Shown here: piece after piece, positions 1,841 through 23,056 of the stretch
How positions within the stretch are numbered: position 1 is the first letter of the stretch
Layout of the letters: each line of letters opens with the position of its first letter
Assembly (NCBI GenBank): GCA_964509615.1
Contig: CAZDXZ010000001.1
Coordinates: 1-52,640 of the forward strand
Reading direction: 5' to 3'
DNA length: 52,640 bases
Source: an uncultured Dehalococcoidales bacterium
Lineage (GTDB): Bacteria; Chloroflexota; Dehalococcoidia; GIF9; UBA5629
The notes under the pieces: generated by a model
Seen by the model: only the letters and a program-made list of their open reading frames with translations
Databases searched by the model: none
What the model was told of the DNA's origin: nothing
Program-made: the position numbers and the translations under genes

Positions 1841-3013
1841 TCAGGCGGTCTTGCGCGTCGTCATAAACTCGACCGCCCAATCGCGCATGGTACGGGGAGG
1901 AGTGTGCTCCTCGGCATTGCGCACCAGGGTCAGGGAGCCGGACTGGCATTTGTAGGCGCAGACTCCGCATCCTATGCAGAGGGCCTCGTCGGGCTCGGAT
2001 ACCTTGCCGGTTTTGTTGGTTAGCTCGCGGACGCGCCCTTCCCCATCACGCAGAGTGGTTTTACGTCCCCTGGCCTGAGGAGATTCCCTGAGCTTGAGTG
2101 CTTCCATGGGGCAGCGCTTGACGCACAGCCCGCAGCCGGTGCAGGTCTGCTGCTCAACTTTAATATGGTAGTTGGATGGCACCAGCCCCTCGTGCTTCAT
2201 GCGTTTGACGGCTTCAAACCACATGCAGCAGCAATTGCAGCAGTTGCAGATGGTGTCGGGCTTTTCCTGCTGGTTCGACATAGCGTGCACCAGGCCGGCC
2301 TCGGCGCACTGCTTGAGGATACGCTCGGTCTCCTCACGTGTGATCTCGCGGCCCATGCCGTTTTCCACGGCGTAGCGTCCCAGCCTGTCGAAGTGCAGGC
2401 ATACTTCGTTGGGGTATTTGTCGGGCTTGCCCGTTACCAGCTCTTTCTTCACACGGCAGGGGCAGAAGCTGACGCTGAAAAACGTGTAGGAATCAAGATG
2501 CTTTTTAACTTCCTCGTAGGGCAGTATGGCCTGCTTGTCCTCGATTACAGTGTTTACAGGCAGCACGCGCAGGCCTTTTTCTTTGACGGTCTCCCAGGGC
2601 TGCATGAAGGTCGGGAAATGGTTATCGGACAGCACTGCAAACTGTCTGCTGACCTCATCCTTCCTGCCCGGCCATCCCGTGGCGCGCATGAGCATGAAAA
2701 TATCGTTGAGCATATAGTGAGGGACACCGTCGCGGTCGAATTTATAGAGGAATCCCTTGCCTGTCAGCTCATCCAGCCGACCTGCCAGGTCGGCTGGGTC
2801 CATACCCTTCAGCCCGGCCCACACCTCGAGGCTTTTGGGCGAGTACGGCATGCCGGTCAGGAACTCAGCCTCGGCGGGTGTGTATTTTGCGACTATGACT
2901 TCCAGCAGTTTCTCCCCGCCCGGAACGCCGTACCAGCTTTTCCTCTGCCATTCGATGAACTGCAGGTAGATCTGCTTTTCCGAGTCCGATAGAACGATCT
3001 CCGGCTGGTTCAT
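1841..3013 (-). CDS. Cys-rich iron-sulfur protein with C-terminal 2x[4Fe-4S] ferredoxin-type motifs
   Basis: CTGCGLCVKRCP and CIGCGVCAYKC (CxxCxxCxxxC(P)), plus upstream CPC and the dense CNCCNCCC motif. 50 nt downstream of marR on the same strand. Confidence 0.7.
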   Translation of the reverse strand: MNQPEIVLSDSEKQIYLQFIEWQRKSWYGVPGGEKLLEVIVAKYTPAEAEFLTGMPYSPKSLEVWAGLKGMDPADLAGRLDELTGKGFLYKFDRDGVPHYMLNDIFMLMRATGWPGRKDEVSRQFAVLSDNHFPTFMQPWETVKEKGLRVLPVNTVIEDKQAILPYEEVKKHLDSYTFFSVSFCPCRVKKELVTGKPDKYPNEVCLHFDRLGRYAVENGMGREITREETERILKQCAEAGLVHAMSNQQEKPDTICNCCNCCCMWFEAVKRMKHEGLVPSNYHIKVEQQTCTGCGLCVKRCPMEALKLRESPQARGRKTTLRDGEGRVRELTNKTGKVSEPDEALCIGCGVCAYKCQSGSLTLVRNAEEHTPPRTMRDWAVEFMTTRKTA

Positions 3014-3063: not shown

Positions 3064-3492
3064 TTAACCTATTTGCGAACGGCCCAGCTCCCGCAGCACA
3101 CGTTCAAAGACCGCCATATCCTGCCCGGGGATATTTTTTCGAATGGCGGCGTTCAATTCGTCCGCGAAGCCGATGATGCGCGGCCCAACCTCCCTTGCCT
3201 TTTGCGTCAGGTATACCAGAGCGGACCTGCGGTCCTCGACATTCGGCCGGCGCTCCACGTAGCCGTTTTTTTCCATGCGGTCGAGTATGCCGGTGATGGT
3301 TGAGCCATCCAGCGCCACACGCTGCCCCAGCTCGCCGATCGTTATGCCGTCTCCAACCCAGAGGGCGCTGAAAACCATGTACTGCGGCGTGGTCAGATTG
3401 AAAGGCGACAGGCGGGAATCGTAGTGCTCGTAGACACGCCGCATCAATCGCCCGATATTAAAGCAGATATAATCGTCCAGCTCGTTTGTCAT
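3064..3492 (-). CDS. MarR-family transcriptional regulator (142 aa)
   Basis: The track ORF 3064..3828 is over-extended. The MarR-like sequence starts at the internal ATG at 3492 (MTNELDDYICFNIGRLMRRV...TTPQYMVFSAL...ITIGELGQRVALDGSTITGILDRMEKNGYVERR...DRR). Confidence 0.85.
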   Translation of the reverse strand: MTNELDDYICFNIGRLMRRVYEHYDSRLSPFNLTTPQYMVFSALWVGDGITIGELGQRVALDGSTITGILDRMEKNGYVERRPNVEDRRSALVYLTQKAREVGPRIIGFADELNAAIRKNIPGQDMAVFERVLRELGRSQIG

Positions 3493-3520
3493 AACCTGAT
3501 ACTTTTTACACAGAATATTT

Positions 3521-3544
3521 GCATACAATATAATAATTGTATGC
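3521..3544. promoter_or_regulatory. candidate MarR operator: perfect 9-bp inverted repeat with 6-bp AT spacer
   Basis: GCATACAAT-ATAATA-ATTGTATGC in the divergent intergenic region between marR (start 3492) and the CcdA-like gene (start 3659). Confidence 0.55.
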
Positions 3545-3658
3545 GCTTTTGTCAAGGGCAGGTGTGATTGGGTGGATGGGTTGGGGTTAGGCGATCTTGG
3601 TTGCCGGTCCGGAGCGGCGTGGAAAAACGGATTGACACAGGTTGCGGGATTGCTCAAA

Positions 3659-4375
3659 ATGGAGCAAATGGACATACAGGGGCTGTTAGCCGATATCAGC
3701 CTGCCGGGCATCTCCGCCTTCCTGCTCGGTGTGATGGCGGCGATCGGGCCTTGCACACTTGCCGCCAACCTGGCGGCGCTGGCGTATATCAGCCGCAGAC
3801 TTTCTGACCGCAGGTTCGCGGTTACCACCGGGGCCCTGTATACACTGGGCAGGATGATTACCTACACCGTGCTGGGGATGCTGATTATCTATGCCGGGCT
3901 GAGCATTCCCGCGATCGCCAACTTTCTGCAGGATTTCGGTGAGAAGGTGATGGGGCCTTTGCTGATAGCGGTAGGTCTGATCATGCTTTTTCTGGACAGG
4001 ATATCTCTGGGCGAGCACGGGAGCACAGTGGCAAACGCCGCCGGCAGGCTGGCGGATATGGGCATGCTGGGCGCTCTGCCGCTGGGCATTGTGCTGGCTC
4101 TGGCATTCTGCCCCTATAGCGCGGTGCTTTTCTTCGGTGTACTCATACCGCTGGCATTCAAGACCAGGGGTGGCGTGGGGTTGCCGGCTTTATTTGCCCT
4201 GGGCACAGGCCTTCCCGTGATGTTATTCGGTACACTCCTGTCGCTGGGCGTGGTGGGCGCGGCAAAATGGATAAATGCCATTAGCAGGGTGGAGAAATAT
4301 ATAAGGGTAGCCATGGCGCTGATCTTCATTTTGATCGGCCTTCTCTATATATGGCTGTGGCTGAATCCCTATTGA
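3659..4375 (+). CDS. CcdA/DsbD-superfamily (DsbD_2-like) polytopic membrane protein
   Basis: About 6 predicted TM helices and an N-terminal-helix Cys-Pro-type motif (AAIGPCTLAANL). Start trimmed to ATG 3659 (MEQMDIQ); the track start 3572 adds non-hydrophobic junk. Family call is moderate. Confidence 0.55.
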   Translation: MEQMDIQGLLADISLPGISAFLLGVMAAIGPCTLAANLAALAYISRRLSDRRFAVTTGALYTLGRMITYTVLGMLIIYAGLSIPAIANFLQDFGEKVMGPLLIAVGLIMLFLDRISLGEHGSTVANAAGRLADMGMLGALPLGIVLALAFCPYSAVLFFGVLIPLAFKTRGGVGLPALFALGTGLPVMLFGTLLSLGVVGAAKWINAISRVEKYIRVAMALIFILIGLLYIWLWLNPY

Positions 4376-4590
4376 GCAGAATGGATCAGTCGAATCAAAG
4401 CAGGGCCGGATCACAGCGCAGGAAGCCCGCTCCCTCATGAAATTGATTGACTCGTCAGCTAACATATATTAGTCTCAATTCTGCTATAATATTGTTGTAA
4501 TATTTTTTTTGCTGTGGTAAGCTGTTAACGTATTGTTGGGACGGAATATAAGCGGTCACGTTTATATAAAAAAAGGTAGGAGGTTGTTAC

Positions 4591-6291
4591 ATGGCGGACA
4601 TTTATAGCAAAAAGCCCTGGCTGGCATTTTACGACAAGCAAGTGCCTGCAACGTTGCAGTATCCGGAGACGAGTTTCTGGGAAACGGTGGAGCCGGCGTT
4701 CAAACATGATCCCAAGCGCGTAAGCCTGCACTATATGGGTACCCCGTTCACTTTCAAGCAGATGGACGAGATGTCCAACCGCTTTGCCAATCTGCTCAAG
4801 AAGATCGGCCTGAAGAAGGGCGATACGGTGGGCATAAACCTTCCCAACCTGCCCGCGTATTATATTGGGTTGCTGGGTATACAGAAGGCCGGCTGCGTGC
4901 TGACCGGCGTGAGCCCGCTGCTGACGGCCGAGGAGCTTAACCATCAGCTCAAGGATTCCGGCGCCAAGGTGCTGGTTACGCTCGACGCCCTCTACCCGCG
5001 GGTGATCAAGGGCATCGGCGGCACCGATCTCAAGGCCATTGTTTTCACCGGCATAGCCGATTACATCCCCCCGGTGATGGCGACCTTGGCGAAAATGCTT
5101 AAGAAGATACCCACCGGCAAAGTTCTGCCCATACCCGGCATCGAGATATACCATTTCAAGGATGTGATGAAGAACATGCCGGCCACTCCCGTGGCCGAGA
5201 AGGTCAGCATGGATGATACCTGCGTAATGCAGTATACGGGAGGCACCACTGGCCTGCCCAAGGGCGCGGAATTGACCCACCGCAACATGGTGAGCCAGAT
5301 GTTCCAGGTCACCACCTGGCTGGATACTCAGATGGGAAGCGTGGTAGGCATGACGGCCTTCCCGCTGTTCCATATCGCGGGCCTGCTGGTCTGCATGGCT
5401 ATGATGTCCAAGGCCATCACCCTGATCGCCGTGCCCAATCCGCGCGACCAGCAGTTCATAATAAAGAACATGAAGAAATACCGTCCGAACGTTATCGGCA
5501 ATGTGCCTACGGTATACCTGGAGCTGATGAAGCAGCCCGGGTTCCGCGGATATGATTTCTCCGATGTGCAGTATTTCGCCAGCGGCGCCGCCCCGTTCCC
5601 TCCCGAATATATCAAGGACTTCGAAAAAATTGTGGGCGAGAACAAGCTGGTGGAGGTATACGGGCTGACTGAGACCAGCCCCATCATCACGGCCAATCCG
5701 CGCTATGGGAAGAAGAAACCCGGCGCGGTCGGCATCCCTTTCCCCGACGTCCTGATCAGGATTGTCGATCCGGCGACGGGCGAGGACCTTCCCTTCAATG
5801 AGCCGGGCGAGGTAGCGGTGAAGGGGCCGCAGGTCTTCACCAAGGGTTATTTCAAGAAGCCGCAGGAGACAGCCAATGTACTGCGAAACGGCTGGTTCCA
5901 TACCGGCGATATCGGAAGGATGGACGAGGAGGGATACCTTACCATAGTTGACAGGCTCAAGGACATGGTCAATGTCTCCGGCTTCAAGGTTTTCACCCGT
6001 GAGCTGGATGACATTATCTGCGAGCACCCCGATGTCGACATGGGCGCAACAATCGGCATACAGGATCCCAACAGGCCAGGTTCTGAAATCGTGGCATCGG
6101 CCATCATCCTCAAGCCTGGTATAGAGAAGAGCGAGGCGGAGAAGGCCAAGATCATCGAGTACCTCAAGGGCAAAGTAGCTCCCTACAAGGTCCCCAAGCG
6201 CATAGAGTTCTACGACCAGCTTCCTACCAGCGCCGTGGGCAAGATCTTGAAGAGGGAACTGCGCACCATGATGACCGAGAAGCCCAAGTAA
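4591..6291 (+). CDS. AMP-dependent acyl-CoA synthetase/ligase (FadD-like), first gene of the GRE operon
   Basis: AMP-binding motif MQYTGGTTGLPKG, GYGLTET-type motif (VYGLTETS), TGDIGRMDEEGY, and C-terminal catalytic Lys region PTSAVGKILKRELR. Strong RBS AGGAGG 8 nt upstream. Confidence 0.9.
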   Translation: MADIYSKKPWLAFYDKQVPATLQYPETSFWETVEPAFKHDPKRVSLHYMGTPFTFKQMDEMSNRFANLLKKIGLKKGDTVGINLPNLPAYYIGLLGIQKAGCVLTGVSPLLTAEELNHQLKDSGAKVLVTLDALYPRVIKGIGGTDLKAIVFTGIADYIPPVMATLAKMLKKIPTGKVLPIPGIEIYHFKDVMKNMPATPVAEKVSMDDTCVMQYTGGTTGLPKGAELTHRNMVSQMFQVTTWLDTQMGSVVGMTAFPLFHIAGLLVCMAMMSKAITLIAVPNPRDQQFIIKNMKKYRPNVIGNVPTVYLELMKQPGFRGYDFSDVQYFASGAAPFPPEYIKDFEKIVGENKLVEVYGLTETSPIITANPRYGKKKPGAVGIPFPDVLIRIVDPATGEDLPFNEPGEVAVKGPQVFTKGYFKKPQETANVLRNGWFHTGDIGRMDEEGYLTIVDRLKDMVNVSGFKVFTRELDDIICEHPDVDMGATIGIQDPNRPGSEIVASAIILKPGIEKSEAEKAKIIEYLKGKVAPYKVPKRIEFYDQLPTSAVGKILKRELRTMMTEKPK

Positions 6292-6308
6292 CTTACTGAG
6301 GAGAAGAA

Positions 6309-7451
6309 ATGAAAAAGCGTCCCGTATTCCGCACCGAACTTTGCGACATGCTTGGCACCGAATATCCGGTGATGCTGGCGGGGATGGGGACTGCAGGCGG
6401 CTACACTTTGACCGCCGCGGTTTCCAACGCCGGCGGCCTGGGCATGCTCGGCGCCACGTTTTTATGGCCTGATGAGCTCAGGGAATGGATCAGGAAAATA
6501 CGCTCCCTCACCGATAAGCCTTTCGGCGTCGACATATTGCTGCCGGCAGCCATACCCAAGGATTTCGACCTGGATAAGCTCAAGGACTACATCCCTCCCG
6601 AGCACACGGAATTTGTCCGCAAGATGGCCAAAGATTTCGGTGTCGAAGGCGCTAAAATGAAGGAGTGGCCCATCTCCGAGGAGTTCGGATGGAGCCAGTT
6701 CCAGGTGGTGAAAGAGGAGAAGGTTCCCTTCTTTGCCCTGGGACTGGGCACGCCCGACTGGCTGATACCGGAGGCGCATGAAGCCGGCATCAAGATTGTG
6801 TCGCTGGTAGGCAATGTACGCAACGCCGTCCGCATTAAAAAGATGGGGGCCGATATTATCATTGCCCAGGGACATGATGCAGGCGGACATACCGGCAGGG
6901 TAGGTACCATGGCCCTTGTTCCTCAGGTAGTGGATGCCGTGGCGCCCACGCCCGTGGTAGCCGCCGGCGGCATAGCCGACGGCCGCGGCCTTGTGGCTGC
7001 GCTGGCATTGGGCGCCATCGGCGCCTGGTGCGGTACCGCCTTTTTAGCCACCCGTGAATGTTTCTGGGATTTCGTTGACTTCGGCATGCTCAACAAGCCT
7101 ACTATCGAAGCCTATTATCGCAAGCTCATCGAGTCTGACGAAGAGGCCGAGCAGATCACCCGCATTTACAGCGGCAAGACCACCAGATCTTTTAAAAACA
7201 AGCTTAGCGAGGCCTGGGACAAGTCAGGCCTGAAAACCCTGCCCATGCCTCTGCAGAGCATGCTGGTCTCCGACCTGCTGCAGGGCATGATGGAGAAAGG
7301 CGAAGCCGAATATTATCCCATGTTCGCCGGGCAGATCACGGGACTGATCAAGGAGATCAGAAGCGCACAGGAAGTTATGGACGATATCATCGGCGGGGCT
7401 GTGAAAATCATGCAAAAACAATTCCCGTCGGAGGTGACCATTAAGGCCTGA
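6309..7451 (+). CDS. nitronate monooxygenase / FabK-like FMN-dependent oxidoreductase (NMO family TIM barrel)
   Basis: GMGTAGGYTLTAAVSNAGGLGMLGA, IIAQGHDAGGHTG, VVAAGGIADGRG. RBS GAGGAG. Confidence 0.85.
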   Translation: MKKRPVFRTELCDMLGTEYPVMLAGMGTAGGYTLTAAVSNAGGLGMLGATFLWPDELREWIRKIRSLTDKPFGVDILLPAAIPKDFDLDKLKDYIPPEHTEFVRKMAKDFGVEGAKMKEWPISEEFGWSQFQVVKEEKVPFFALGLGTPDWLIPEAHEAGIKIVSLVGNVRNAVRIKKMGADIIIAQGHDAGGHTGRVGTMALVPQVVDAVAPTPVVAAGGIADGRGLVAALALGAIGAWCGTAFLATRECFWDFVDFGMLNKPTIEAYYRKLIESDEEAEQITRIYSGKTTRSFKNKLSEAWDKSGLKTLPMPLQSMLVSDLLQGMMEKGEAEYYPMFAGQITGLIKEIRSAQEVMDDIIGGAVKIMQKQFPSEVTIKA

Positions 7452-7493
7452 GCATCGGAAAAAGGACGAGACGGCCGCAAAAAGGATATCGAG

Positions 7494-8294
7494 ATGGAGT
7501 ATGAAGGTCTGATACTTGAGAAGAAGGATTACGTGGCGACATTGACCATGAACAGACCGCACAGATTGAACGCGCTGACGGGTGAGATCAGCAACGAGTA
7601 TTTGCCCAGGATATTCAGGGACCTGCAGGAGGATGATGACGTCCGTGCGCTTATCATAACCGGCGCGGGCAAAGGTTTCTGCACGGGCGCCGACGTCATT
7701 ATTTTCAACCAGGCGGCCGAGGAAGGAAGGCTGCAGGAGCTGCTGGAGCCACATGCCCAGACCATCGGCGGCGCATTCGTGATGGGCCTGTATAATCTGC
7801 AGAAGCCGGTCATTGCCGCCGTCAACGGGGTGGCCGCAGGCGGCGGCGTGTCGCTGGCGCTGCTGGCCGACATCAGGATCGCTTCAGAGAAGGCTTTGTT
7901 CAATATGGCTTTCGTCATGCGGGGACTGATACCCGATTGCGGCTGCACCTACCTTATGCCGCGCCTGCTGGGCACGGGGCGCAGCTACGAATACATGTAT
8001 ACCGGGGCGACTATCGACGCGCGCGAAGCGGAGCGCATCGGGCTGGTAAACAGGGTCGTACCACATGAGAAGCTGATGGAAGAGGCGGAAGCACTGGCGG
8101 CCAGGATCGTGCAGGGCCCCCCGCTGGCCTATAAGCAGATCAAGCGCGCGGTGCAGAGCGGCCTGCACAACACCCTGGAACAGCAGCTCTTTATCGAGAC
8201 ATACGCGCAGAAGAACCTGATGGGAAGCGAGGATTTCCGTGAGGGGCTCAACTGCTTCAGGGAGAAGCGGATGCCCGAGTTTAAGGGACGCTGA
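7494..8294 (+). CDS. enoyl-CoA hydratase/isomerase (crotonase) family protein
   Basis: LTMNRPHRLNAL, ITGAGKGFCTGADV, AAVNGVAAGGGVSLALLADIRIA, and the typical C-terminal EGLNCFREKR. Confidence 0.9.
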   Translation: MEYEGLILEKKDYVATLTMNRPHRLNALTGEISNEYLPRIFRDLQEDDDVRALIITGAGKGFCTGADVIIFNQAAEEGRLQELLEPHAQTIGGAFVMGLYNLQKPVIAAVNGVAAGGGVSLALLADIRIASEKALFNMAFVMRGLIPDCGCTYLMPRLLGTGRSYEYMYTGATIDAREAERIGLVNRVVPHEKLMEEAEALAARIVQGPPLAYKQIKRAVQSGLHNTLEQQLFIETYAQKNLMGSEDFREGLNCFREKRMPEFKGR

Positions 8295-8342
8295 TAAATA
8301 GTAATAAATAAACAGCTTATACAGGAATAGGAGGAACACCTG

Positions 8343-10988
8343 ATGAAAGATTTCGATGCCGTAGTGGTGGGGGCGGGCCTGGGCGGAATCTCCGCTGCGA
8401 CCTACCTGGCCAAGGCGGGCAAGAAGGTTGTGCTGCTGGAGAAACATAATGTGCCGGGCGGTTATGCGACTTCGTTTCTGAGAGGGCGCTTTGAATTTGA
8501 GATCGCCCTGCACCAGCTCTCCGGTTACGGGACGGAGGAGGATAAGGGGCCCATCTGGAAAATCCTGCATGACAGCGGTGTCTCGGACCGTGTGGACATA
8601 CTGCACATCCCGGACCTGTACCGCAGCATTTTCCCCGATTTCACCATCGAGCTTCCCAAGGGCAGGCAAAACTATGAGGACGCCCTGTGCAGCCAGTTCC
8701 CGCGGGAGGCCGAGGGCATCAAGAAATTCTCCAATATCATGTTCGAATTCGCCAGGCAGGCCATGCGATCCATGCGGGTGGGCATGAAGGCGGTGATGGA
8801 GAATCCATCCGAGTACCCCGAGCTGGTCGGCAATTTCGGCAAAACGCTGTCCGAGGTGCTCAATCCTCTGGTATCCGATGAGAAGGCGCGGGCAGTGATC
8901 GGGCAGCTGTGGGGCTACTTCTGCCAGCCGCCCTCCAAGATGGCGTTCCTCATCTATGCCCTGGGACTGGTCAGCTACATCAGGTTTGGCCCGGCCCATG
9001 TCAGGGGGACGTCGCAAAATCTCTCACAGGCTTTTATCGATACGATGGAATCCTACGGCGGCGAGGTCTGGTTCAACAACGGCGCCAGGAAGATTATTGT
9101 AAAGGACGGCAAGGTGCGGGGAGTGCTGACGGAGGACGGCACCGAGATCGCCACGCAGCACGTCGTGTGCAGCGCCAACCCGGTGACCACCAGCCTGGAG
9201 CTGGTCGGGCGCGACAACATGCCGGGCTGGTACCTCAACCGGCTGGGCGGATGGAGCGGCGGCGCCAGCACATTTAACATCTACGTGGGCCTGGACTGCC
9301 CCTGCCAGGATGTCGGGCTTAACGTACACGAGAATTTCGTCAATAAGACTTATGACCTGGACGCACAGTACGAAAATATGCGCAATTCGCTTGATTATGA
9401 GCCGGACGGCAATGCCATCGTGGCTTACAACGTGGTTGATCCGACCGTTTCGCCCAGGGGCACGGCATCGTGCGTGATCACGCAGATAGCCTATGCCGAC
9501 CCCTGGCTGAAGCTGTCCCCATCCGAATATGTAGTGGCCAAGAACAGGATGGCTGAAAAGGTGCTCAAGCTGGCGGAAGTGGCGGCGCCGAATCTGAGGG
9601 AGCATATCGAGGTGATCGAGGTTGCCACGCCGCTGACCAATATCCGCTACACGGGAAATCCGCGCGGCAGCATCATCGGATTCGACGAGAACTTCACCGG
9701 TACCGGGTTCCTGCGCATACCCATGCGCGGGCCGCTGGAGGGGCTGTATTTCGCCAATGCCTGGGTCAATATCGGAGGTGGATTCGAATCGTGCATCGCC
9801 TCGGGCGCAATGGCATCGCGAGAAGTGCTGCGCGACATGGAGAAGGGTCCCTGGGATGCGGGCGAGATAACCAAGATGAAGGAATCGCTGGAAAAGCAAA
9901 AGGTGCAGGCTCATGAGCTGAAGGACACCATCACACCCGAGGATAAATTCGTGAAGAGCATCCATCCCCGCAGGCTGCAGCTCAAGGTCAAGGAGATAGT
10001 CAAAGAGACGGCCAGCGCCAAGACTTTTAGGTTGGAATCCAAGAACGGCCGGCTACCGCACTTCCGCGCCGGCCAGTATATCAACCTCTTCGTGGATATC
10101 AAGGGTGTCAAGACCTCGCGACCCTACAGCATATCGTCGACGCCGGGCAAGCCGTACTATGACATCACGGTACGCCGTGTTGACGGCGGCTTCGTTTCGC
10201 ACTACCTGCTGGACAGCGTCAAGGTCGGTGACAGCTTTGAATCAACCGGTCCCAACGGATATTTCTACTATGAGCCGCTGATGGACTCGTCGGACCTCGT
10301 TCTCCTGGCGGGCGGCAGCGGCGCAGCGCCTTTCATCTCCATCATTCGCGAGACTATTGAAAAGAAGCAGCCGCTGAAGATACATCTGATCTACGGCAGC
10401 CGCAAACCGGATGACATAATCTTCGAAAAAGAGCTTAAAGAGATCGTTGCCAAAAACAAGAACATCAAGGTCGATTACGTGATGAGCGAACCCCCGGCGG
10501 GCTGGAAGGGCGCCTCGGGCTTCCTGGATGACAAGGTGATCTCGAAGCTTGCGGGCGATCTGAAGGGAAAGACGGTGTTTGTGTGCGGACCGGCGCTGAT
10601 GTATGAGCTCTGCGGACCGGCGCTGGCCAAGCTGGGTGTGCCCGCCAGGCGGACCAAGCGCGAAGCATACGGGCCGCCGCAGGATGTGACCAAAGAGCCT
10701 GCCTGGCCAGGAACAGCCGCGTCCAAGGAATTTGAGGTCATTGAAATGCGGAGCGGCAAGAAAGCCAAAGCCAAGGCCGGTGAGCCGCTGATGAACTCGC
10801 TGGAACGGGCGGGCATCGTGGTACCGGCCATCTGCCGCTCCGGTGAGTGCACGGCCTGCCGCACCAAGCTGATCTCAGGCAAGGTCTTCACACCCTCCAG
10901 GGTGCATCACCGCCAGGCGGACAGGAAGTCGGGATATATTCATCCCTGTATGAGCTATCCTCTTGACGATCTGCGGATCAAAGTGTAA
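8343..10988 (+). CDS. three-module fusion: CrtI/phytoene-desaturase-family FAD oxidoreductase + FNR-like FAD/NAD(P)-binding reductase + plant-type 2Fe-2S ferredoxin (881 aa)
   Basis: N-terminal Rossmann DAVVVGAGLGGISAATYLAKAGKKVVLLEKHNVPGG. From about aa 537, RPYSISS (RxYS), LLAGGSGAAPF (GGxGxxP) and VFVCGP. C-terminal CRSGECTACRTK...HPC (Cx4Cx2C...C). Confidence 0.85.
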   Translation: MKDFDAVVVGAGLGGISAATYLAKAGKKVVLLEKHNVPGGYATSFLRGRFEFEIALHQLSGYGTEEDKGPIWKILHDSGVSDRVDILHIPDLYRSIFPDFTIELPKGRQNYEDALCSQFPREAEGIKKFSNIMFEFARQAMRSMRVGMKAVMENPSEYPELVGNFGKTLSEVLNPLVSDEKARAVIGQLWGYFCQPPSKMAFLIYALGLVSYIRFGPAHVRGTSQNLSQAFIDTMESYGGEVWFNNGARKIIVKDGKVRGVLTEDGTEIATQHVVCSANPVTTSLELVGRDNMPGWYLNRLGGWSGGASTFNIYVGLDCPCQDVGLNVHENFVNKTYDLDAQYENMRNSLDYEPDGNAIVAYNVVDPTVSPRGTASCVITQIAYADPWLKLSPSEYVVAKNRMAEKVLKLAEVAAPNLREHIEVIEVATPLTNIRYTGNPRGSIIGFDENFTGTGFLRIPMRGPLEGLYFANAWVNIGGGFESCIASGAMASREVLRDMEKGPWDAGEITKMKESLEKQKVQAHELKDTITPEDKFVKSIHPRRLQLKVKEIVKETASAKTFRLESKNGRLPHFRAGQYINLFVDIKGVKTSRPYSISSTPGKPYYDITVRRVDGGFVSHYLLDSVKVGDSFESTGPNGYFYYEPLMDSSDLVLLAGGSGAAPFISIIRETIEKKQPLKIHLIYGSRKPDDIIFEKELKEIVAKNKNIKVDYVMSEPPAGWKGASGFLDDKVISKLAGDLKGKTVFVCGPALMYELCGPALAKLGVPARRTKREAYGPPQDVTKEPAWPGTAASKEFEVIEMRSGKKAKAKAGEPLMNSLERAGIVVPAICRSGECTACRTKLISGKVFTPSRVHHRQADRKSGYIHPCMSYPLDDLRIKV

Positions 10989-11024
10989 AAGTAAATTATG
11001 AGTATGTAGCTAAGGAGGCTAATT

Positions 11025-13421
11025 ATGACTACAAGAACAGTGAACTTAATGGTTAAAACTCCCATCAAGGCGCAGCAGGTGGCGCTGGATTATCTGAGCG
11101 CCGATGCCAGGGCGACGCGGCCCGGTTTCATCTGGTCGCTCGATCTGGAACGCGCGAGGCTGGTGACGCAGTCTTACAAAATGACCGAAGGCCAGCCGAT
11201 AATCACCCGGCGTGCCAAAGCGCTGGCGCATATACTGGATAATATGACCCTTTACATCAGGCCCGATGAAATGATCGTGGGTAATTATGCCTCCAACAGC
11301 GACTCGGTGCCTTTTTACCCTGAGCTGGCCTGGAAGTGGATAGCCAGGGAGACCGCTCCGGGGCAGGTCTACCAGAGCATGCTCAACGATGAGGGCAGAA
11401 AGGAATTGAAGGAGATCGGCGAGTACTGGGGAGACCGCTCCATCCACCACATGAGCAAGAAATACCTTACCCCCGAGCTGAAGGAGCAGTTCTGGATCTT
11501 CAACTGGGAATCAGCCACACCCAACTATGACAAGATACTCTCCATAGGTTTGAAAGGCATCCTGGGGGAAGCCAGAGAGAGGTTGAAGAAGCTCGATCGA
11601 GAATACATGGACGAGACGATCAACGGCATTGATTTCGTCAGCAAAAAGGAATTTCTGGAGAGCACCATCATCAGCATGGAGGCGGTGTGCAGGTGGTCGA
11701 AGAGGTATGCTGAGCTGGCGCGCAGCCTGGCGAAATCAGAGAAGGACGTGCTCAGGAAAGTTGAGCTCGGCAACATTGCCGAGGCCTGCGAACAGGTGCC
11801 GGAGCACCCGGCGCGCACGCTGCTCGAGGCAATACAGTCATACTGGTTCATCCACCTGGTAGTCAACTTCCTCGAGATGCCCCAGGTGGGTTCCGGCGTA
11901 CGCTTCGACGTGGTATTCAACCCGTTCTATGAGAAGGACCTGGCCGCGGGCAAGATAACACGTGAATCGGCGCAGGAGCTGGTGGAGTTCCTTTTCGTTA
12001 AATTCCAGGAGACGGGCTTCCTGCATGCGCCTATCTGGTCCGGCTTCGGCGGTGGGGCGCTGGGGTTCCAGACCGTCACAATCGGCGGTGTGGACTCCAA
12101 GGGCCGAGATGTCACAAATGAGATGAGCCTTATCATCCTCGATGCCACCAAGACCGTCCGCGCCATCGTGCCGCCGCTGGCGCTGCGCTGGCATGACGGC
12201 ATACCGCGCAAGCTGGTGGACAAGGCTATCGAGTGCCTGGCATCCGGGATGCCGCAGCCGGCTATCTTCAACGACAAGGTGTGTGTGCTGAGACTGGTCA
12301 ACATGGGCACGCCGCTTGAGGATGCACGCAACTACTCCATCAACAACTGCATGGTGCCCACCATACCCGGCAAAAACTTCAGCCACATCTCGGCCTGGGC
12401 CAGCGGTGTGCCGGCGCCCCTCTGCCTCAACCAGGCGCTGGGCATAGACCCGCTGGCTATCTATAAGAAAGCGGGCAACAAGGTGCTCGATCCCGAGAAA
12501 GTAAAGTCCATGCAGGAAGTTTTCGATGCGTTCATAGAGAACTACCGGCTGGTGATTCACCGTCTGGTGCGCATCGCCAATATCGCAGACGCCCTTTACA
12601 AAGCGTGGGCGCCGCGCCCCTTCCTGTCTTCCGTTATCGATGACTGCATCGAGAGGGCGCAGGATGTGCGCGATTGGAACTATATGCCCGATTACCGCGA
12701 TGTAACGCTTTTCGGCCTGAACACGGTGGCAGATTCGCTGACAGCCGTGAAAAAGGTGGTTTTCGACGACAAAAAGATCAGCATGAAGCAGCTTGTGGAA
12801 GCTTTGAAGAACAACTGGAAAGGTTACGAAGAGATTCGCCAGCTATGCCTGCGCGCCCCCAAGTTCGGCAATGACGATGATTATGCCGATCTGATCTCGA
12901 GCGAGGTTGCACGCAGAATAGAAGAGGAGACCAGCAAATGCAAGACCAACTGGGGCACATCGGTGCATGTGGACGGGACCGCCGCCACCGCCTGGTGGAG
13001 CTTCGGCCGCGTTTGCGGCCCGACCCCGGATGGGAGGATGAGCGGAGATCCCTTCAACGACGGGACCATCTCCCCCATGGCGGGACGTGATAAGAAAGGC
13101 CCTACCGCGGTGCTCAAATCCGTAGCGAAGGTAGACCCGCTGGAGAGCTGGAACCACCTCTTCAACCAGAGCTTCATGCCGCAGTTCCTGGTGGGACACA
13201 ATGCCGAGGTCTTCGCTCAATACCTGAAGACTTTTGCCGACATGGGGATACACCATATCCAGTTCTCCACGGTCAACAGGGAGACACTGGAGGATGCGCA
13301 GGACCATCCTGAGAAATATCCCACACTGATGGTCAGGGTGGCTGGATTCGCCGCGTACTTCGTCGATCTCGACCGCAGCATCCAGGATTCCATCATAGCC
13401 AGGACTCCGCAGTGCTTTTAA
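11025..13421 (+). CDS. glycyl radical enzyme, PFL2/PflD-like (798 aa)
   Basis: C-terminal glycine-radical motif MVRVAGFAAYFVDLDRSIQDSIIARTP (Gly774). Candidate thiyl Cys442 in ...DARNYSINNCMVPTIPGK.... N-terminus is typical of the PFL2 family (ERARLVTQSYKMTEGQP..RRAKAL). RBS AAGGAGG. Confidence 0.9.
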   Translation: MTTRTVNLMVKTPIKAQQVALDYLSADARATRPGFIWSLDLERARLVTQSYKMTEGQPIITRRAKALAHILDNMTLYIRPDEMIVGNYASNSDSVPFYPELAWKWIARETAPGQVYQSMLNDEGRKELKEIGEYWGDRSIHHMSKKYLTPELKEQFWIFNWESATPNYDKILSIGLKGILGEARERLKKLDREYMDETINGIDFVSKKEFLESTIISMEAVCRWSKRYAELARSLAKSEKDVLRKVELGNIAEACEQVPEHPARTLLEAIQSYWFIHLVVNFLEMPQVGSGVRFDVVFNPFYEKDLAAGKITRESAQELVEFLFVKFQETGFLHAPIWSGFGGGALGFQTVTIGGVDSKGRDVTNEMSLIILDATKTVRAIVPPLALRWHDGIPRKLVDKAIECLASGMPQPAIFNDKVCVLRLVNMGTPLEDARNYSINNCMVPTIPGKNFSHISAWASGVPAPLCLNQALGIDPLAIYKKAGNKVLDPEKVKSMQEVFDAFIENYRLVIHRLVRIANIADALYKAWAPRPFLSSVIDDCIERAQDVRDWNYMPDYRDVTLFGLNTVADSLTAVKKVVFDDKKISMKQLVEALKNNWKGYEEIRQLCLRAPKFGNDDDYADLISSEVARRIEEETSKCKTNWGTSVHVDGTAATAWWSFGRVCGPTPDGRMSGDPFNDGTISPMAGRDKKGPTAVLKSVAKVDPLESWNHLFNQSFMPQFLVGHNAEVFAQYLKTFADMGIHHIQFSTVNRETLEDAQDHPEKYPTLMVRVAGFAAYFVDLDRSIQDSIIARTPQCF

Positions 13422-14371
13422 ACTCACAGGAGGCCGGCGAGACGGGCGACGTTAAGTCTGAAAAAGACCTGAAAGGGCTGGTATTTAATATCCAGCGCTA
13501 CAGCATTCACGACGGACCGGGCATAAGGACGACGGTCTTTTTCAAAGGTTGCCCGCTGCACTGCAGGTGGTGCTCCAATCCGGAATCTATCAGTCCCAAG
13601 CCCGAGATACTGGTGAGGGAGGCCGGGTGCAACGGCTGCCGGCGCTGTTTAGACGTTTGTTCGGCGGGAGCTTTATCACTGGCCTCCACCGGCCTGTGGC
13701 TGGACAGGGCTAAATGCGACCTCTGTCTGAAATGCATTGACGCTTGCTGGGAAGACGCGATAGAGGTGGCCGGGCGTTATATGACGCTCGATGAGGTGGT
13801 GGAAGAGTGCCGGAGGGACGAGCCCTTCTACCGCAACTCCGGCGGCGGCGTAACGCTTTCGGGAGGCGAGCCGCTGTTGCAGGCGGACTTCGCCCTGGCG
13901 CTTCTCAACAGGTGCAGAGCGCTGGGCTATAACACAGCGCTGGATACCTGCGGGCAGGTAGCATGGGGCGTTCTGGACAGGGCGCTCGATTCTGCCGACC
14001 TCATACTATTCGATATCAAGCATCTGGATGCCGATGAGCACCGGGACGGCACAGGCGCGGACAACAAGCTGATTCTGTCCAACCTTGAGAAAGCTGTGAG
14101 TTCCGGCAAGTCGCGGATCTGGATCAGGATTCCCGTGATACCGGGATACAACGACTCCAGCGAGTATATTGATAAGCTGGCCGCCAGGTTGCGCGGTATG
14201 AAGGCCGAGAAAGTGTCTGTGCTCGGTTATCACGAGTTCGGCCGTCCCAAATACCAGTCGCTGGGGAAGGCCTACCAGCTCAGCGGCCGCAAGCCGCTGG
14301 GCAGTATCCGCCTCAACGAGATCGTGGATATATTCAAGTCGGCCGGCCTGGACGCCACCGCAGGGTATTGA
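13412..14371 (+). CDS. glycyl-radical-enzyme activating enzyme (radical SAM, with two auxiliary ferredoxin-type clusters)
   Basis: GPGIRTTVFFKGCPLHCRWCSNPE (CxxxCxxC), then CNGCRRCLDVC and CDLCLKCIDAC, then SGGEPLLQ. The GTG start overlaps the GRE stop by 10 nt. Confidence 0.9.
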   Translation: MLLNSQEAGETGDVKSEKDLKGLVFNIQRYSIHDGPGIRTTVFFKGCPLHCRWCSNPESISPKPEILVREAGCNGCRRCLDVCSAGALSLASTGLWLDRAKCDLCLKCIDACWEDAIEVAGRYMTLDEVVEECRRDEPFYRNSGGGVTLSGGEPLLQADFALALLNRCRALGYNTALDTCGQVAWGVLDRALDSADLILFDIKHLDADEHRDGTGADNKLILSNLEKAVSSGKSRIWIRIPVIPGYNDSSEYIDKLAARLRGMKAEKVSVLGYHEFGRPKYQSLGKAYQLSGRKPLGSIRLNEIVDIFKSAGLDATAGY

Positions 14372-14419
14372 CAGCTGGGCCTGGCGGCTCGCAGCCGGCG
14401 CAGGATTAGACAAAATATA

Positions 14420-14453
14420 GGGGCTTCGCCGAAGCGAAGCCCCTTGATCTTTC
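14420..14453 (+). terminator. Rho-independent terminator closing the GRE operon
   Basis: GGGGCTTCGC-cgaa-GCGAAGCCCC, a perfect 10-bp stem (14420..14443), followed by the T-rich TTGATCTTTC. Confidence 0.7.
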
Positions 14454-14809
14454 AGATCCTTGCTCCTCCCTACTCTCCCCCAGAGGAAAGCCTCAATACT
14501 TTGCTTTATCCTTCATTTTTGCAGCTTCTTTACTGCTTAACGGAGAGCTCGGGAGTTTTACCTGCTCTCCCCTTCTGCACGCCCGCAGACTATCTCTGCT
14601 CCTCCTGCAGGGGAGAGCTTCCTCGAGGAAAGAGCCATTCTACAAACATGGCCTGTTTCTTGACCATTTCCTGCCTCCCGGGGGGCTTATCGGTCTCAAT
14701 GCCCCTCAATTTCATGCTACTACTAACGACCGGAGCGGTCAAACTGAATGGAGAGCGCCTTGCAGACCGTCCCTGGGTGCTACATAATGTTGTGGTTGAA
14801 AGGGAACAA

Positions 14810-15862
14810 ATGATGGCGAAAAAGATGTTGCTGGGCCTGGGCACCGACGAGTTGAAAAACCTGACGGCCGATCTCGGGCAGAAGAAGTTTCGTGGCAAAC
14901 AGGTGTCCGACTGGATATACAGGCGCGGCTGCCGGCAGGTCGACGATATGACCGATCTCCCGGCCCCCTTCAGGGCCGTGCTGGACGAGTCGTGGACGGT
15001 GGGAAGGTCATCAGTCAGGAATGTCAGCACGGGCAGGGACGGCACATTCAAACTGCTGCTGGTGCCTTTTTACGGCGACCTGGTGGAGACCGTGGGCATG
15101 CCGTATGATGACCGTTTCTCCTGCTGTGTGTCCACCCAGGTGGGATGCCCGGTGGCCTGTGCCTTTTGCGCTACAGGCGCCGACGGTTTCAAACGCAACC
15201 TGGCTGCGGGCGAGATAGTCGACCAGGTCCTGACCGTGGGAGATATCGCAGTCCGTAGAAAGATACTCGCTGATGAGGGAAGGGTCAGCCATGTTGTATT
15301 TATGGGAATGGGTGAACCGTTGCTTAATTACGATGCCACCCTGACCGCGCTGCGTCTGATCAATGAAGAGCTGAAGATAGGGATGCGCAATATAACGGTT
15401 AGCACGATCGGTTATGTTCCCGGTATATACCGGCTGGCGGCTGAAAATATGCAGTTCACGCTGGCGGTCTCGCTGCATGCCGCCTCGGACGCATTGCGCA
15501 GAAAGCTGGTGCCTGGCATGTCACGCTACCTGTTGAAGGATATAGTTGCAGCCTGCCAGCATTACGTCAACCAGACGGGCCGGCGGGTTACGTTCGAGTA
15601 CTGCCTGCTGAAAGGGATAAACAATAGTGCGGCGGAAGCGGCCGCCCTGGCCTCGCTGCTAAAAGGATTAAACTGCCACGTGAACCTCATCCCCTTTAAC
15701 GAGGTGCCGCACGGCAATTACAGGCATCCCGAAGCCCCGGCAATCGCTTTCTTCAGACAGGTGCTCGAGAGATCGAGCATAACCGTAACGCAGCGGGAGC
15801 AGAAGGGAGCGGGCATACAGGCGGCCTGCGGGCAGTTAGGCCGGCAATCCTTATCTAAATAA
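14810..15862 (+). CDS. rlmN: 23S rRNA/tRNA adenine-C2 methyltransferase RlmN (radical SAM)
   Basis: The track ORF 14444..15862 is over-extended. The RlmN-like sequence starts at ATG 14810 (MMAKKMLLGLGTDELKNL..FRGKQVSDWIY). Motifs CPVACAFCATG, GMGEPLLNY, and the C-terminal GAGIQAACGQL. Confidence 0.9.
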   Translation: MMAKKMLLGLGTDELKNLTADLGQKKFRGKQVSDWIYRRGCRQVDDMTDLPAPFRAVLDESWTVGRSSVRNVSTGRDGTFKLLLVPFYGDLVETVGMPYDDRFSCCVSTQVGCPVACAFCATGADGFKRNLAAGEIVDQVLTVGDIAVRRKILADEGRVSHVVFMGMGEPLLNYDATLTALRLINEELKIGMRNITVSTIGYVPGIYRLAAENMQFTLAVSLHAASDALRRKLVPGMSRYLLKDIVAACQHYVNQTGRRVTFEYCLLKGINNSAAEAAALASLLKGLNCHVNLIPFNEVPHGNYRHPEAPAIAFFRQVLERSSITVTQREQKGAGIQAACGQLGRQSLSK

Positions 15863-15935: not shown

Positions 15936-15959
15936 TGACCGGTCAATTAACGATTGACC
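15933..15959. promoter_or_regulatory. candidate operator: 16-bp perfect palindrome plus a third half-site
   Basis: AATTGACCGGTCAATT (15933..15948) overlaps the -10 hexamer. A further ATTGACC lies at 15953..15959. Confidence 0.5.
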
Positions 15960-16007
15960 ACAAGACGGGAACACATCGCGCCGTTGGCGATGCGGGTCGG
16001 AGTCGAA

Positions 16008-17714: not shown

Positions 17715-17750
17715 CTGCCACTGTAAAAATTATGAAGGGAGGTTGTATCG

Positions 17751-19451: not shown

Positions 19452-19515
19452 TGATCCGAAAAGGTAATTAGGCGTTTGGCGCTTAATCATAATAACAAAT
19501 CAAAGGAGGCTTATC

Positions 19516-21207: not shown

Positions 21208-21220
21208 TTACGTGAGTAAG

Positions 21221-21250
21221 GCTGTCCCCGGCCTGAGGGCCGGGGACAGC
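21221..21250 (+). other. GC-rich perfect hairpin between paralogs 3 and 4 (no T-tract)
   Basis: GCTGTCCCCGGCC-tgag-GGCCGGGGACAGC, 13-bp stem, followed by ttgaaaat. Confidence 0.6.
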
Positions 21251-21297
21251 TTGAAAATACAGTCACGGCATAAAATATAAAATTTGGAGGTTGTTGC

Positions 21298-22986: not shown

Positions 22987-23013
22987 AGGATCATTCTTAC
23001 TCAAAATAATAGA

Positions 23014-23043
23014 GACCGGTCCCGGCACGTGCCGGGACCGGTC
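23014..23043. other. 30-nt perfect palindrome 13 nt upstream of the paralog 5 start
   Basis: GACCGGTCCCGGCACGTGCCGGGACCGGTC. No T-tract follows it. It contains the self-complementary octamer GACCGGTC at both ends. Confidence 0.6.
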
Positions 23044-23056
23044 AGAAGGATGCGAA

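Follow-up and report, generated by a model that had tools for sequence, protein, structure and literature searches.

Based on the analysis of the window, the whole stretch of 52,640 nucleotides of DNA that was studied, we conclude that the six genes at positions 4591-14371 are a genuine operon, and that this operon joins two modules that can be separated, a glycyl radical enzyme (GRE) with its activase and a set of genes for CoA-thioester enzymes. Judged by its sequence, the GRE is a member of an uncharacterised clade. The unit is best explained as a composite operon with a catabolic role in a Dehalococcoidales-type anaerobe. Tentatively, and with somewhat less than even confidence, we favour the reading that a non-eliminase GRE works in functional coupling with enzymes that activate a hydrophobic substrate with CoA and process its double bonds. 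Our best candidate for what this GRE acts on is a hydrophobic acid or a lipid.

All six genes lie on the + strand (Table 1), with intergenic gaps of 17, 42, 48 and 36 nt and a 10-nt overlap between the GRE and activase genes, exactly the layout that an earlier note on this DNA had given. The same gene order occurs in L001 and ten metagenome contigs, which argues that the operon is not a chance juxtaposition. Purine-rich ribosome-binding sites precede five genes (GGTAGGAGG, the one before the ATG at 4591, GAGGAGAAG, AAAGGA, TAGGAGGAA and TAAGGAGG). The activase has a weak site only, and its start overlaps the GRE stop codon; this suggests coupled translation. The leader carries a promoter-like TTGATT-16-TATATT at 4443-4470 and matched no Rfam family, and farther upstream the sequence diverges between the window, L001 and L094. 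At the other end, the hairpin placed at 14420 by the earlier note is present, with a weak + strand T-run and with a stem one base pair longer than the 10 bp that the note had counted. No further gene fits within the unit, and no small ORF in the approximately 440 nt between the activase and the probable start of RlmN is convincing.

Table 1. Features of the six-gene unit and its upstream flank in the window.
Feature	Position	Strand	Basis
Cys-rich Fe-S protein, 390 aa, C-terminal 2x[4Fe-4S] domain	1841..3013	-	Pfam Fer4 families, residues 284-369
MarR-family regulator	3064..3828	-	MarR domain, ORF residues 145-202
DsbD_2-type membrane protein, immediately upstream of the operon	3572..4375	+	Pfam DsbD_2
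Conserved promoter/leader region with ribosome-binding site	4440..4590	+	Near-invariant among the window, L001 and L094
FadD-like acyl-CoA ligase (Lig1), 566 aa	4591-6291	+	AMP-binding and AMP-binding_C
FMN enzyme, NMO/FabK family, 380 aa	6309-7451	+	Pfam NMO, 220 bits
Crotonase-fold protein, PaaG type, 266 aa	7494-8294	+	Pfam ECH_1
CrtI/CrtISO-like FAD enzyme::FNR-type reductase::plant-type 2Fe-2S ferredoxin, 881 aa	8343-10988	+	Pfam
Glycyl radical enzyme (GRE), 798 aa	11025-13421	+	PFL-like and Gly_radical
GRE-activating radical SAM enzyme, 319 aa, GTG start	13412-14371	+	Radical_SAM and Fer4
Terminator-like hairpin, end of unit	14419..14444		11-bp stem, 8 G-C pairs, loop CGAA

Among the enzymes encoded upstream of the GRE, Lig1 has long-chain-fatty-acid--CoA ligase models as its best NCBIfam matches, every one below its cut-off, and shares just 32-37% identity with the seven downstream ligase paralogues. 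The FMN enzyme, whose closest solved structures are FabK enoyl-ACP reductases (163 bits), matches the FabK equivalog TIGR03151 in two stretches at 237.6 bits (cut-off 453) and is a probable enoyl-thioester reductase. The crotonase-fold protein reads GGGVSLAL and AFVMRGLIPD at the positions of the two catalytic Glu of hydratases, both of which are absent; its top solved matches (6sl9, 6slb, 3hrx and 6sla, about 195 bits), which we take to be Thermus PaaG, read GAGMSLAL and AFVRIGLVPD, and the catalytic Asp of PaaG is found in the same ...PD.G context (AFVMRGLIPDCG in the window, AFVRIGLVPDSG in 6sl9). It also matches the E. coli 1,2-epoxyphenylacetyl-CoA isomerase (4fzw_C) with 173 bits, and reaches 217.7 of the 345 bits set for the equivalog TIGR02280. 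This gene product is a probable delta3,delta2-enoyl-CoA isomerase rather than a hydratase.

The fusion protein consists of Amino_oxidase (residues 13-496), FAD_binding_6 (546-643), NAD_binding_1 (654-755) and Fer2 (803-873) domains. It matches the NCBIfam models carot_isom (120.6 < 586.9), crtI_fam (TIGR02734, 108.6 < 238.1), GbcB and PaaE, none of them at cut-off, and the CrtI structure 4dgk with only 50 bits. Fusions of this kind, about 881 aa long, form a large conserved family with members in Dehalococcoidia, Deltaproteobacteria and Actinomycetota, and to our knowledge no CrtI::FNR::Fer2 fusion has been characterised. Since the operon encodes no oxygenase, the reductase tail, which resembles the PaaE/GbcB reductase class, presumably serves the fused flavoenzyme. 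The three partner enzymes thus share fold and key motifs with PaaG, FabK and CrtISO/RetSat-type flavoenzymes, but differ from them in scoring below the equivalog cut-offs. Because the PaaG-type protein lacks the hydratase Glu, the four upstream genes would activate an acid and shift or reduce double bonds. The beta-oxidation-like route suggested earlier is partly supported, but the four genes do not make up a beta-oxidation cycle, since no hydratase, dehydrogenase or thiolase was found within the operon.

Chloroflexi join the GRE-activase and NMO-ECH-fusion modules in two different gene orders. Arrangement 1 comprises the six-gene order in L001 and six metagenome contigs, together with four more contigs of close relatives whose version has five genes, the crotonase gene being absent, and the conservation of the neighbourhood in other MAGs or contigs, which had been raised before, is borne out by about 11 of them. 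Arrangement 2, in nine distinct contigs, runs GRE-AE-SBP-unknown-ECH-fusion-(ACAD)-SCP2-SCP2-FeADH, with a divergent MarR gene, NMO, an OYE/dienoyl-CoA-reductase-like gene and ECH; its partner identities are only 46-65%. Where arrangement 1 has all six genes, and in arrangement 2 too, the crotonase gene lies immediately 5' of the fusion gene. Each module is also found apart from the other: the GRE and activase stand by themselves in Asgard archaea and several bacteria (L089, L003 and L083 are among the loci), which implies that the GRE reaction does not depend on the CoA module, and the NMO-ECH-fusion module occurs without any GRE in Actinomycetota-type contigs.

This separability raises the alternative that two unrelated modules merely lie side by side, a self-sufficient GRE-activase pair and a ligase/FabK-like/PaaG-like/CrtI-fusion set that works in a separate unsaturated acyl-CoA pathway. 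GRE and activase genes without CoA genes in six loci (L004-L006, L087, L089 and L003), fusion, ECH and NMO genes in nine GRE-free loci, and a ligase-fusion pair with a TetR gene in five others all speak for it. However, the tight gaps (36 nt between fusion and GRE), the single strand and the single terminal hairpin argue against it, as do the retention of the linkage in two gene orders despite the low partner identity in the second and the embedding of the GRE in different CoA-thioester operons in other lineages, and we consider it unlikely. In L008/L090, AtuA, acyl-CoA carboxylase and DUF35/thiolase genes surround the GRE on one strand, along with a Liv-type ABC transporter with ligase, 3-hydroxyacyl-CoA dehydrogenase and ECH; in L086 the neighbours are a ligase, a hotdog thioesterase, a patatin and a FadR-type regulator. 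The GRE loci of L088 (thiolase and SCP2 fusion) and L084 (ACAD and SCP2) and those of the sister clades (ACADs, thiolases, ECH and ligases) are of the same kind. The tie of the GRE to CoA-thioester metabolism, as proposed in the earlier note, thus recurs in unrelated gene sets such as those of L008/L090 and L086. In relatives, genes for periplasmic binding proteins and Liv-type transporters lie near the GRE, which suggests an acid taken up from outside instead of a hydrocarbon; with the gene order also considered, an imported acid fits no worse than a hydrocarbon. That the GRE would initiate the route is what we infer.

The GRE matches both domains of its superfamily (PF02901, 547.8 bits; PF01228, 98.1 bits), and carries the glycyl motif R-V-A-G774-F and the Cys loop N-N-C442-M-V-P with a single catalytic Cys, which aligns with C433 of the B12-independent glycerol dehydratase (GDH) and C493 of the benzylsuccinate synthase TutD and is invariant in all homologues. 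A dedicated activase is encoded beside it, as befits the superfamily, with the motif C47xxxC51xxC54 (residues 47-54) and two ferredoxin-like Cys motifs; the activase exceeds the cut-off of TIGR02494 (344.8 > 174) and falls below those of all substrate-specific activase equivalogs. The GRE itself is below every curated NCBIfam equivalog cut-off, including those of the eliminases HpsG (502/1000, score/cut-off), HypD (490/1100), CutC (442/1050) and HpfG (430/1000). It shares 35.6% identity with GDH and 31.6% with TutD, and the structure search returned glycerol dehydratase (461 bits), propanediol dehydratase (444), TutD (373), MasD (355) and the arylacetate decarboxylase AAD (351). The enzyme therefore lies outside the characterised classes, as had been supposed, its best solved relative being 36% identical, and the partner sets of known GREs are likewise missing from the unit, with no shell, small Fe-S subunit, sulfonate or proline genes. 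No function for the clade was found in the published literature, and whole GRE clades are still uncharacterised according to a 2026 review (PMC13450708).

The active site sets the enzyme apart from the eliminases and isomerases. A C-x-E motif on the Cys loop has been reported for GRE 1,2-eliminases and isomerases (PMC13450708). The window GRE reads C442-M443-V444 and lacks it. Val or Ile occupies the +2 position in 19/19 sequences of the orthologue clade, with C-M-V-P in all 16 orthologues at least 60% identical to the window GRE except L008/L090, which share C-M-I-P with the more distant L007; in the same scan ordinary eliminases read G-C-V-E, and L074, a genuine benzylsuccinate synthase (1010 bits to TutD), reads C-M-S-P. 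In the alignment, GDH E435, D447, H164, S282 and Y640 correspond to V444, I455, S163, V288 and T652, so that every acid/base residue used by eliminases and isomerases is absent, and the aligned pocket positions V444, I455, V288, F348, T652, A654 and A656 are aliphatic, aromatic or small. These pocket assignments are alignment-based, since the AlphaFold model, with a mean pLDDT of 62, is too low in confidence for reading the pocket. R531 is conserved over nearly the entire superclade of related sequences.

A second alternative to the coupled, non-eliminase reading is that the GRE is a subunit-free arylacetate-type decarboxylase (AAD/PAD-like), which would convert a hydrophobic carboxylate to CO2 and a hydrocarbon or shortened acid. 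The single subunit and the missing C-x-E are shared with AAD (7e7l, Cys-loop segment G-C-V-L), and the hydrophobic pocket positions, the widely conserved R531 and the acid substrate suggested by the binding proteins of relatives are in keeping with such an enzyme. The decarboxylase models, however, are far from being passed (IAD 410/1100; HPAD large subunit 294/1150), no HPAD-type small-subunit ORF was found in the unit, the AAD score is below that of GDH, and the neighbouring CoA ligase would serve no purpose if the product were a hydrocarbon, except where the substrate is a dicarboxylate. For PAD, the active-site residues Q484, W495 and Y691 are reported to be essential, and the Cys-loop segment of AAD that was compared gave no active-site residue in common with the GRE. 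We regard a decarboxylase as quite improbable.

Still less probable, and in our view very much so, is a 1,2-eliminase or dehydratase that turns a hydrophobic diol or ether into an aldehyde, then an acid and then a CoA ester. Glycerol and propanediol dehydratases (1r8w, 5i2a) are the best overall matches and of similar length, and their activase has the same two extra ferredoxin-like clusters; an aldehyde:ferredoxin oxidoreductase near L003 and the sister-clade L025, together with the Fe-ADH of arrangement 2, would also fit an aldehyde-forming reaction. But the C-x-E Glu is Val, the diol-binding His, Asp and Ser of these dehydratases are replaced by aliphatic or small residues and Tyr640 is substituted as well, the score against the PFL2/GDH subfamily model TIGR01774 is 541 against a cut-off of 678, all eliminase equivalog cut-offs are missed, and the window unit holds no microcompartment genes. 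The commonest database name, formate C-acetyltransferase, and a Pfam family named PFL-like are all that suggest pyruvate formate-lyase, a negligible prospect refuted by N441-C442 with its single Cys in place of a Cys-Cys pair, by TIGR01255 (124 versus 994 bits) and by a match to the E. coli enzyme of 118 bits in the C-terminal region alone.

For the coupled, non-eliminase reading, we propose the following course. First, the activase would place a radical on G774, from which it would be relayed to C442. Since no general base is available, the substrate radical would be resolved without elimination; our first guess is that it adds to an unsaturated co-substrate, a hydroalkylation as in the X-succinate synthases, which have the similar C-M-S-P loop, and our second is that the hydrogen is returned at a shifted position, an isomerisation. 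The FadD-like ligase would then thioesterify the resulting carboxylate, the PaaG-type protein would move a 3-ene to the 2-position, and the FabK-like enzyme and the CrtI-like flavoenzyme, the latter drawing on the NAD(P)H-to-FAD-to-[2Fe-2S] chain within the same protein, would saturate the remaining double bonds. The end product would be an ordinary acyl-CoA that enters beta-oxidation encoded elsewhere.

Hydroalkylation as the specific chemistry of the GRE is distinctly doubtful. The X-succinate synthases (TutD/BssA, 4pkc; MasD, 9o8u) share with the window GRE the fold, the Met after the Cys and the Pro at +3 (C-M-S-P versus C-M-V-P in the window), the lack of a +2 Glu and hydrophobic or small aligned pocket residues, and their downstream CoA-dependent processing has a counterpart in the clade, where some related loci contain DUF35/thiolase pairs. 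However, the identity is only 32%, and the GRE is overall closer to eliminases. Genes for beta, gamma or delta subunits are absent from the window unit, no small ORF for a small Fe-S subunit being found within or after it nor in the annotated related loci. The window activase is below the BssD cut-off, no CoA-transferase or mutase was found in the operon neighbourhood, unlike in X-succinate synthase systems, and the transporters near GRE relatives suggest an acid substrate. The fumarate-binding TutD residues R508, W613, N615 and Q707 align with A457 (or I455), R558, V560 and T652 and are not conserved, the register of R508 being uncertain through an indel of 2-4 residues after the Cys, with Arg at 455 in Asgard orthologues and sister clades.

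In the neighbour-joining tree, the orthologue clade and the superclade (sequences at least 41% identical) each have a bootstrap of 100/100, and the bipartition that joins the superclade with the X-succinate synthases has a weak 65/100 in a biased sample. The clade occurs in Chloroflexi, Desulfobacterota-type bacteria and Asgard archaea, where MAGs of Hermod-, Loki-, Jord-, Thor- and Hodarchaeota encode, beside an activase, orthologues 60-65% identical to the window GRE. Archaeal PFL-like GREs are also represented by A. fulgidus PflD (2f3o) and by the putative Ass/Bss of Hermodarchaeota and other Asgard archaea, for which the Hermodarchaeota assignment was based on 29-33% identity to AssA/BssA (PMC8163825). 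In the latter, compared by description, Gly precedes the catalytic Cys, whereas the window GRE clade has Asn, and kinship is possible. The clade may even represent a new functional GRE class, a proposal that we hold as speculative and on balance doubtful: a single-subunit non-eliminase, related to but distinct from the X-succinate synthases, that performs C-H activation on a substrate of the lipid, isoprenoid or aryl-alkanoate type, perhaps with a non-fumarate co-substrate or with a CoA thioester as substrate, and that has spread by horizontal transfer among Asgard archaea, Chloroflexi and Desulfobacterota. If true, carbon in sediments would be turned over anaerobically by a widespread route that has gone unrecognised.

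Additionally, three genes upstream of the operon recur in related loci. Next to orthologous GRE genes, the Cys-rich Fe-S protein has full-length homologues in L083 (27% identity, E 1e-34) and in the Lokiarchaeia contig L084 (24%, E 8e-32), and it is syntenic in L001, L094 and L107; it may be an accessory redox partner that supplies electrons. The MarR gene, whose real start is probably near 3570, is 83-90% conserved among operon-type relatives, has a counterpart in divergent orientation next to the GRE gene of L081/L082 and L085 and another close to that of L083, and probably regulates the six-gene unit. The DsbD_2-type protein is conserved alongside, with 83-91% identity, in L001, L094, L097, L107, L114 and L139.

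The 798-aa glycyl radical enzyme (GRE) of the operon is best filed within the GRE superfamily as a variant whose chemistry we infer from its sequence and context. It scored under every curated equivalog cut-off (score/cut-off: HpsG 502/1000, HypD 490/1100, CutC 442/1050, IAD 410/1100, HPAD 294/1150 and PFL 124/994) and below that of the PFL2/glycerol-dehydratase subfamily model (541 vs 678), and the PFL-type Cys-Cys pair is absent from it. Its top solved relatives are the B12-independent glycerol dehydratase (GDH; 461 bits, 35.6% identity), then propanediol dehydratase. All characterised eliminases and new isomerases keep a C-x-E motif (2026 review, PMC13450708), whereas the window GRE clade lacks this catalytic signature. 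In the alignment, the GDH catalytic Glu435 is replaced by Val444, and the substrate-binding Asp447, His164, Ser282 and Tyr640 by Ile455, Ser163, Val288 and Thr652; as judged by these positions, the eliminase acid/base residues are absent and the aligned pocket positions hold aliphatic or small residues. Among 98 GREs recovered from genomes for motif comparison, the Glu is missing in all those sharing 41% identity or more with the query (the superclade), which carry Cys loops of the form C-M-[V/I/S/R/Q]-[P/W] or C-V-Y-[L/M/I], while most of the remoter GREs have a G-C-V-E loop. D650-G651-T/S652 is common to the whole superclade and R531 to nearly all of it, and the GRE and its activase are predicted to form a competent pair. 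The AlphaFold2 model of the GRE, built on a 12-sequence alignment, had a mean pLDDT of 62, with the entire barrel core and the Gly loop below 50.

The query Cys loop, C-M-V-P, appears to resemble that of the X-succinate synthases (XSS), because a genuine benzylsuccinate synthase in the compared set (L074; 1010 bits to TutD, and the route by which the TutD sequence for comparison was obtained) carries C-M-S-P. In a neighbour-joining tree of a biased sample, the orthologue clade and the superclade were each recovered at 100/100, and the superclade joined XSS at 65/100. The GRE aligned with TutD at 373 bits and 31.6% identity and with MasD at 355 bits. However, the window GRE does not share TutD residues Arg508, Trp613, Asn615 and Gln707, and its clade occurs without XSS subunits, no small-subunit genes being found; both the differing residues and the missing genes count against XSS membership. 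Position 455, probably the equivalent of the fumarate-binding Arg508 of benzylsuccinate synthase, lies in an H-I-S context in bacterial orthologues and H-R-S in Asgard ones, the sister clades also having Arg. Limonenylsuccinate synthase, tempting for its isoprenoid theme, was rejected as a model, since it falls outside this clade and is a classical XSS of three subunits that comes with a CoA-transferase (PMC12583861), and a second GRE in locus L086, tried as an XSS comparison, has a G-C-L-E loop of eliminase type.

The partner enzymes give a different picture from the beta-oxidation-like route proposed in the earlier note. The "crotonase" (ECH) has Ser and Phe at the two hydratase catalytic-Glu positions, and its best alignments, sharing the GAGMSLAL and AFVRIGLVPD motifs, are with 6sl9, 6slb, 3hrx and 6sla, which we take to be Thermus PaaG; delta3,delta2-enoyl-CoA isomerase is therefore the likeliest role of the ECH. 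The NMO protein is nearest to FabK enoyl reductases, and the 881-aa fusion combines a CrtI/CrtISO-like FAD domain, an FNR-type reductase and a 2Fe-2S ferredoxin. Therefore, the four upstream genes, including the FadD-like ligase, form no beta-oxidation cycle, and by their predicted functions serve acid activation and C=C isomerisation or reduction. Identity between the operon ligase and its seven tandem paralogues downstream is just 32-37%, and the operon ligase is itself tandemly duplicated in some relatives (L153, L097). The fusion belongs to a separate large family of more than 120 clusters (at least 55% identity) in Dehalococcoidia, Deltaproteobacteria and Actinomycetota. In the actinomycetotal locus L091, four tandem stand-alone CrtI-like genes (~498 aa) follow a CrtI::FNR::Fer2 fusion, and their products may share its reductase tail.

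Related loci were collected in two sets, GRE-anchored and fusion-anchored, with the flanks of two high-GC loci (L002, L034) annotated in part. The neighbourhood proved to be conserved, the order ligase-NMO-ECH-fusion-GRE-activase (AE) recurring in the Dehalococcoidales contig L001 and, counting forms without ECH, in ten metagenome contigs, with GRE identities of 80-95%. L001 is the closest genome contig (GRE 93% identical); its synteny with the window takes in the Fe-S protein, MarR and DsbD-like genes before the operon and reaches the fourth ligase paralogue after it, which is as far as the retrieved sequence goes. ECH is cleanly missing from four of the ten (L095, L096, L107, L114), whose operons thus have five genes; these have GREs 92-93% identical and an NMO-fusion spacing of ~85 nt. 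A second order, GRE-AE-binding protein-unknown-ECH-fusion-(ACAD)-SCP2-SCP2-Fe-ADH, occurs in nine distinct contigs together with a divergent MarR, NMO, an OYE/dienoyl-CoA-reductase-like gene and ECH; identities to the window are 75-77% for GRE, 62-66% for the fusion, 59-63% for ECH and 46-51% for NMO. Elsewhere, GRE-AE sits within an AtuA/acyl-CoA-carboxylase/DUF35-thiolase operon (L008/L090), beyond which lies a Liv-type transporter with ligase, 3-hydroxyacyl-CoA dehydrogenase and ECH, or adjoins ligase, thioesterase, patatin and FadR (L086), and in Asgard archaea its sole partner is a divergent Thioredox_DsbH gene. GRE is present in 14 of 53 fusion-anchored loci (at least 10 kb); among those lacking it are a group ordered TetR-ligase-fusion and another, ACAD-TetR-DUF35-thiolase-thiolase-DUF35-ECH-NMO-fusion, that also carries additional CrtI paralogues as separate genes. 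These varied contexts, the GRE-less loci and the two gene orders lead to the conclusion that the operon is a composite of two separable modules, joined at least twice by Chloroflexi. The genomic linkage of GRE to CoA-thioester enzymes is a repeated one.

The orthologue clade is large, unusually strongly conserved and spans two domains of life: its clusters, 60-95% identical, come from Chloroflexi/Dehalococcoidia, Smithellaceae and Thermodesulfobacteriota, and from Loki-, Hermod-, Jord-, Thor- and Hodarchaeota MAGs. None of them bears a functional name. The clade is common in MAGs of sediment and lake origin. Asgard GREs were labelled "Ass/Bss" on 29-33% identity in the Hermodarchaeota paper (PMC8163825), and according to the 2026 review (PMC13450708) no archaeal PFL-like GRE has yet been given a function, nor have entire clades. 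As in the earlier note, the operon could not be matched to a known pathway, and neither clade nor operon was found described in the literature on GREs of Dehalococcoidia/Chloroflexi and on GRE-CoA enzyme links. The neighbours of sister clade D include SDRs, a carboxylesterase, an MFS transporter and an aldehyde oxidoreductase, with no XSS-type partners (CoA-transferase, mutase) in these contexts. Four tandem sister-clade paralogues (C-V-Y-L loop) stand with one activase ahead of a ligase in L022, and paired paralogues occur likewise in L017, L020 and L024.

We propose that the thiyl radical would take hydrogen from a hydrophobic substrate, and that the substrate radical would be resolved without elimination, either by an addition of the XSS kind or by giving hydrogen back at a shifted position; the product would then be activated with CoA, isomerised from 3-ene to 2-ene and saturated at the expense of NAD(P)H. 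With a ligase, a PaaG-like isomerase, a FabK-like reductase and a self-sufficient CrtI-like flavoenzyme as partners, the candidate substrate narrows to an unsaturated carboxylate of hydrophobic character. An acid taken up from outside is favoured by the binding proteins and Liv transporters of relatives, and SCP2, SCPx-type thiolase/DUF35, Atu-like carboxylase and CrtI-like enzymes point tentatively to chains that are branched, isoprenoid or bulky in some other way. The observation in the earlier note is confirmed and its interpretation supported in part. Every characterised GRE class has opened new anaerobic metabolism (choline to TMA, hydroxyproline, sulfonates, toluene, alkanes), and this clade, strongly conserved, common in MAGs and with neither the eliminase and isomerase signature nor XSS subunits, is a good target, for which the defined partner set offers a concrete experimental handle and the relatives' binding proteins could be used for ligand fishing. 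Since activation of the multi-subunit XSS enzymes is the bottleneck in biocatalysis, an enzyme forming C-C bonds without accessory subunits, if this is such a one, would be of interest there.

The six open reading frames of the operon lie where first described, with spacings of 17, 42, 48 and 36 nt and a 10-nt GRE/activase overlap, and Pfam bore out all six domain calls. Of the ribosome-binding sites claimed for the genes, purine-rich ones precede five, the activase starting at a GTG within the end of the GRE gene; the closing hairpin is present, with a CGAA loop and a stem of 11 bp rather than 10 bp. No convincing small ORF occurs in the ~440 nt that separate the activase from the likely start of the RlmN-like gene. 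About 150 nt before the operon hardly vary across two related contigs and the sequence farther upstream is divergent, which suggests a conserved promoter or leader; Rfam gave no family for it, nor anywhere in the window. The rest of the window has housekeeping genes such as those for MetRS, FtsH and polyprenyl synthase, and the operon region is therefore chromosomal. The first downstream ligase paralogues are kept at 85-96% in L001, L093 and L094. The Cys-rich Fe-S protein has no family name beyond Fer4; it adjoins orthologous GREs in three distant lineages, and homologues lie near fusion homologues in L111, L119, L137, L161, L162 and L168. A divergent Thioredox_DsbH protein of ~690 aa stands upstream of the GRE in all five Asgard contigs (L004, L005, L006, L084, L087), 57-61% identical between them.

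Coordinates of features in the window and in related loci
Feature	Position	Strand	Remark
Cys-rich Fe-S protein	1841-3013	-	CPCR...NCCxCCC + 2x[4Fe-4S]; L083 8220-9224; L084 15233-16297
Conserved upstream stretch	4440-4590
AT-rich imperfect palindrome	4477-4504		could be a MarR operator
GRE residue 455	~12387-12389	+
Terminator hairpin	14419-14444
RlmN-like radical SAM ORF	14444-15862	+	over-extended at 5′ end, as listed runs through hairpin; RlmN_N begins at residue 129; MMAKK start near 14810
Seven tandem AMP-binding acyl-CoA ligases	15954-28180	+	547-586 aa; gaps 36-90 nt; 47-80% identical among themselves
GatZ/KbaZ-like::PfkB kinase fusion	28245-30530	-	761 aa
Pyridine-nucleotide-disulphide oxidoreductase, C-terminal rhodanese domain	30573-32606	-	677 aa; adjoins GatZ/KbaZ-like::PfkB fusion
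Tandem sister-clade GREs	L022 9866-20664
Stand-alone CrtI-like genes	L091 12804-19561
Duplicated operon-type ligase	L153 2-3317
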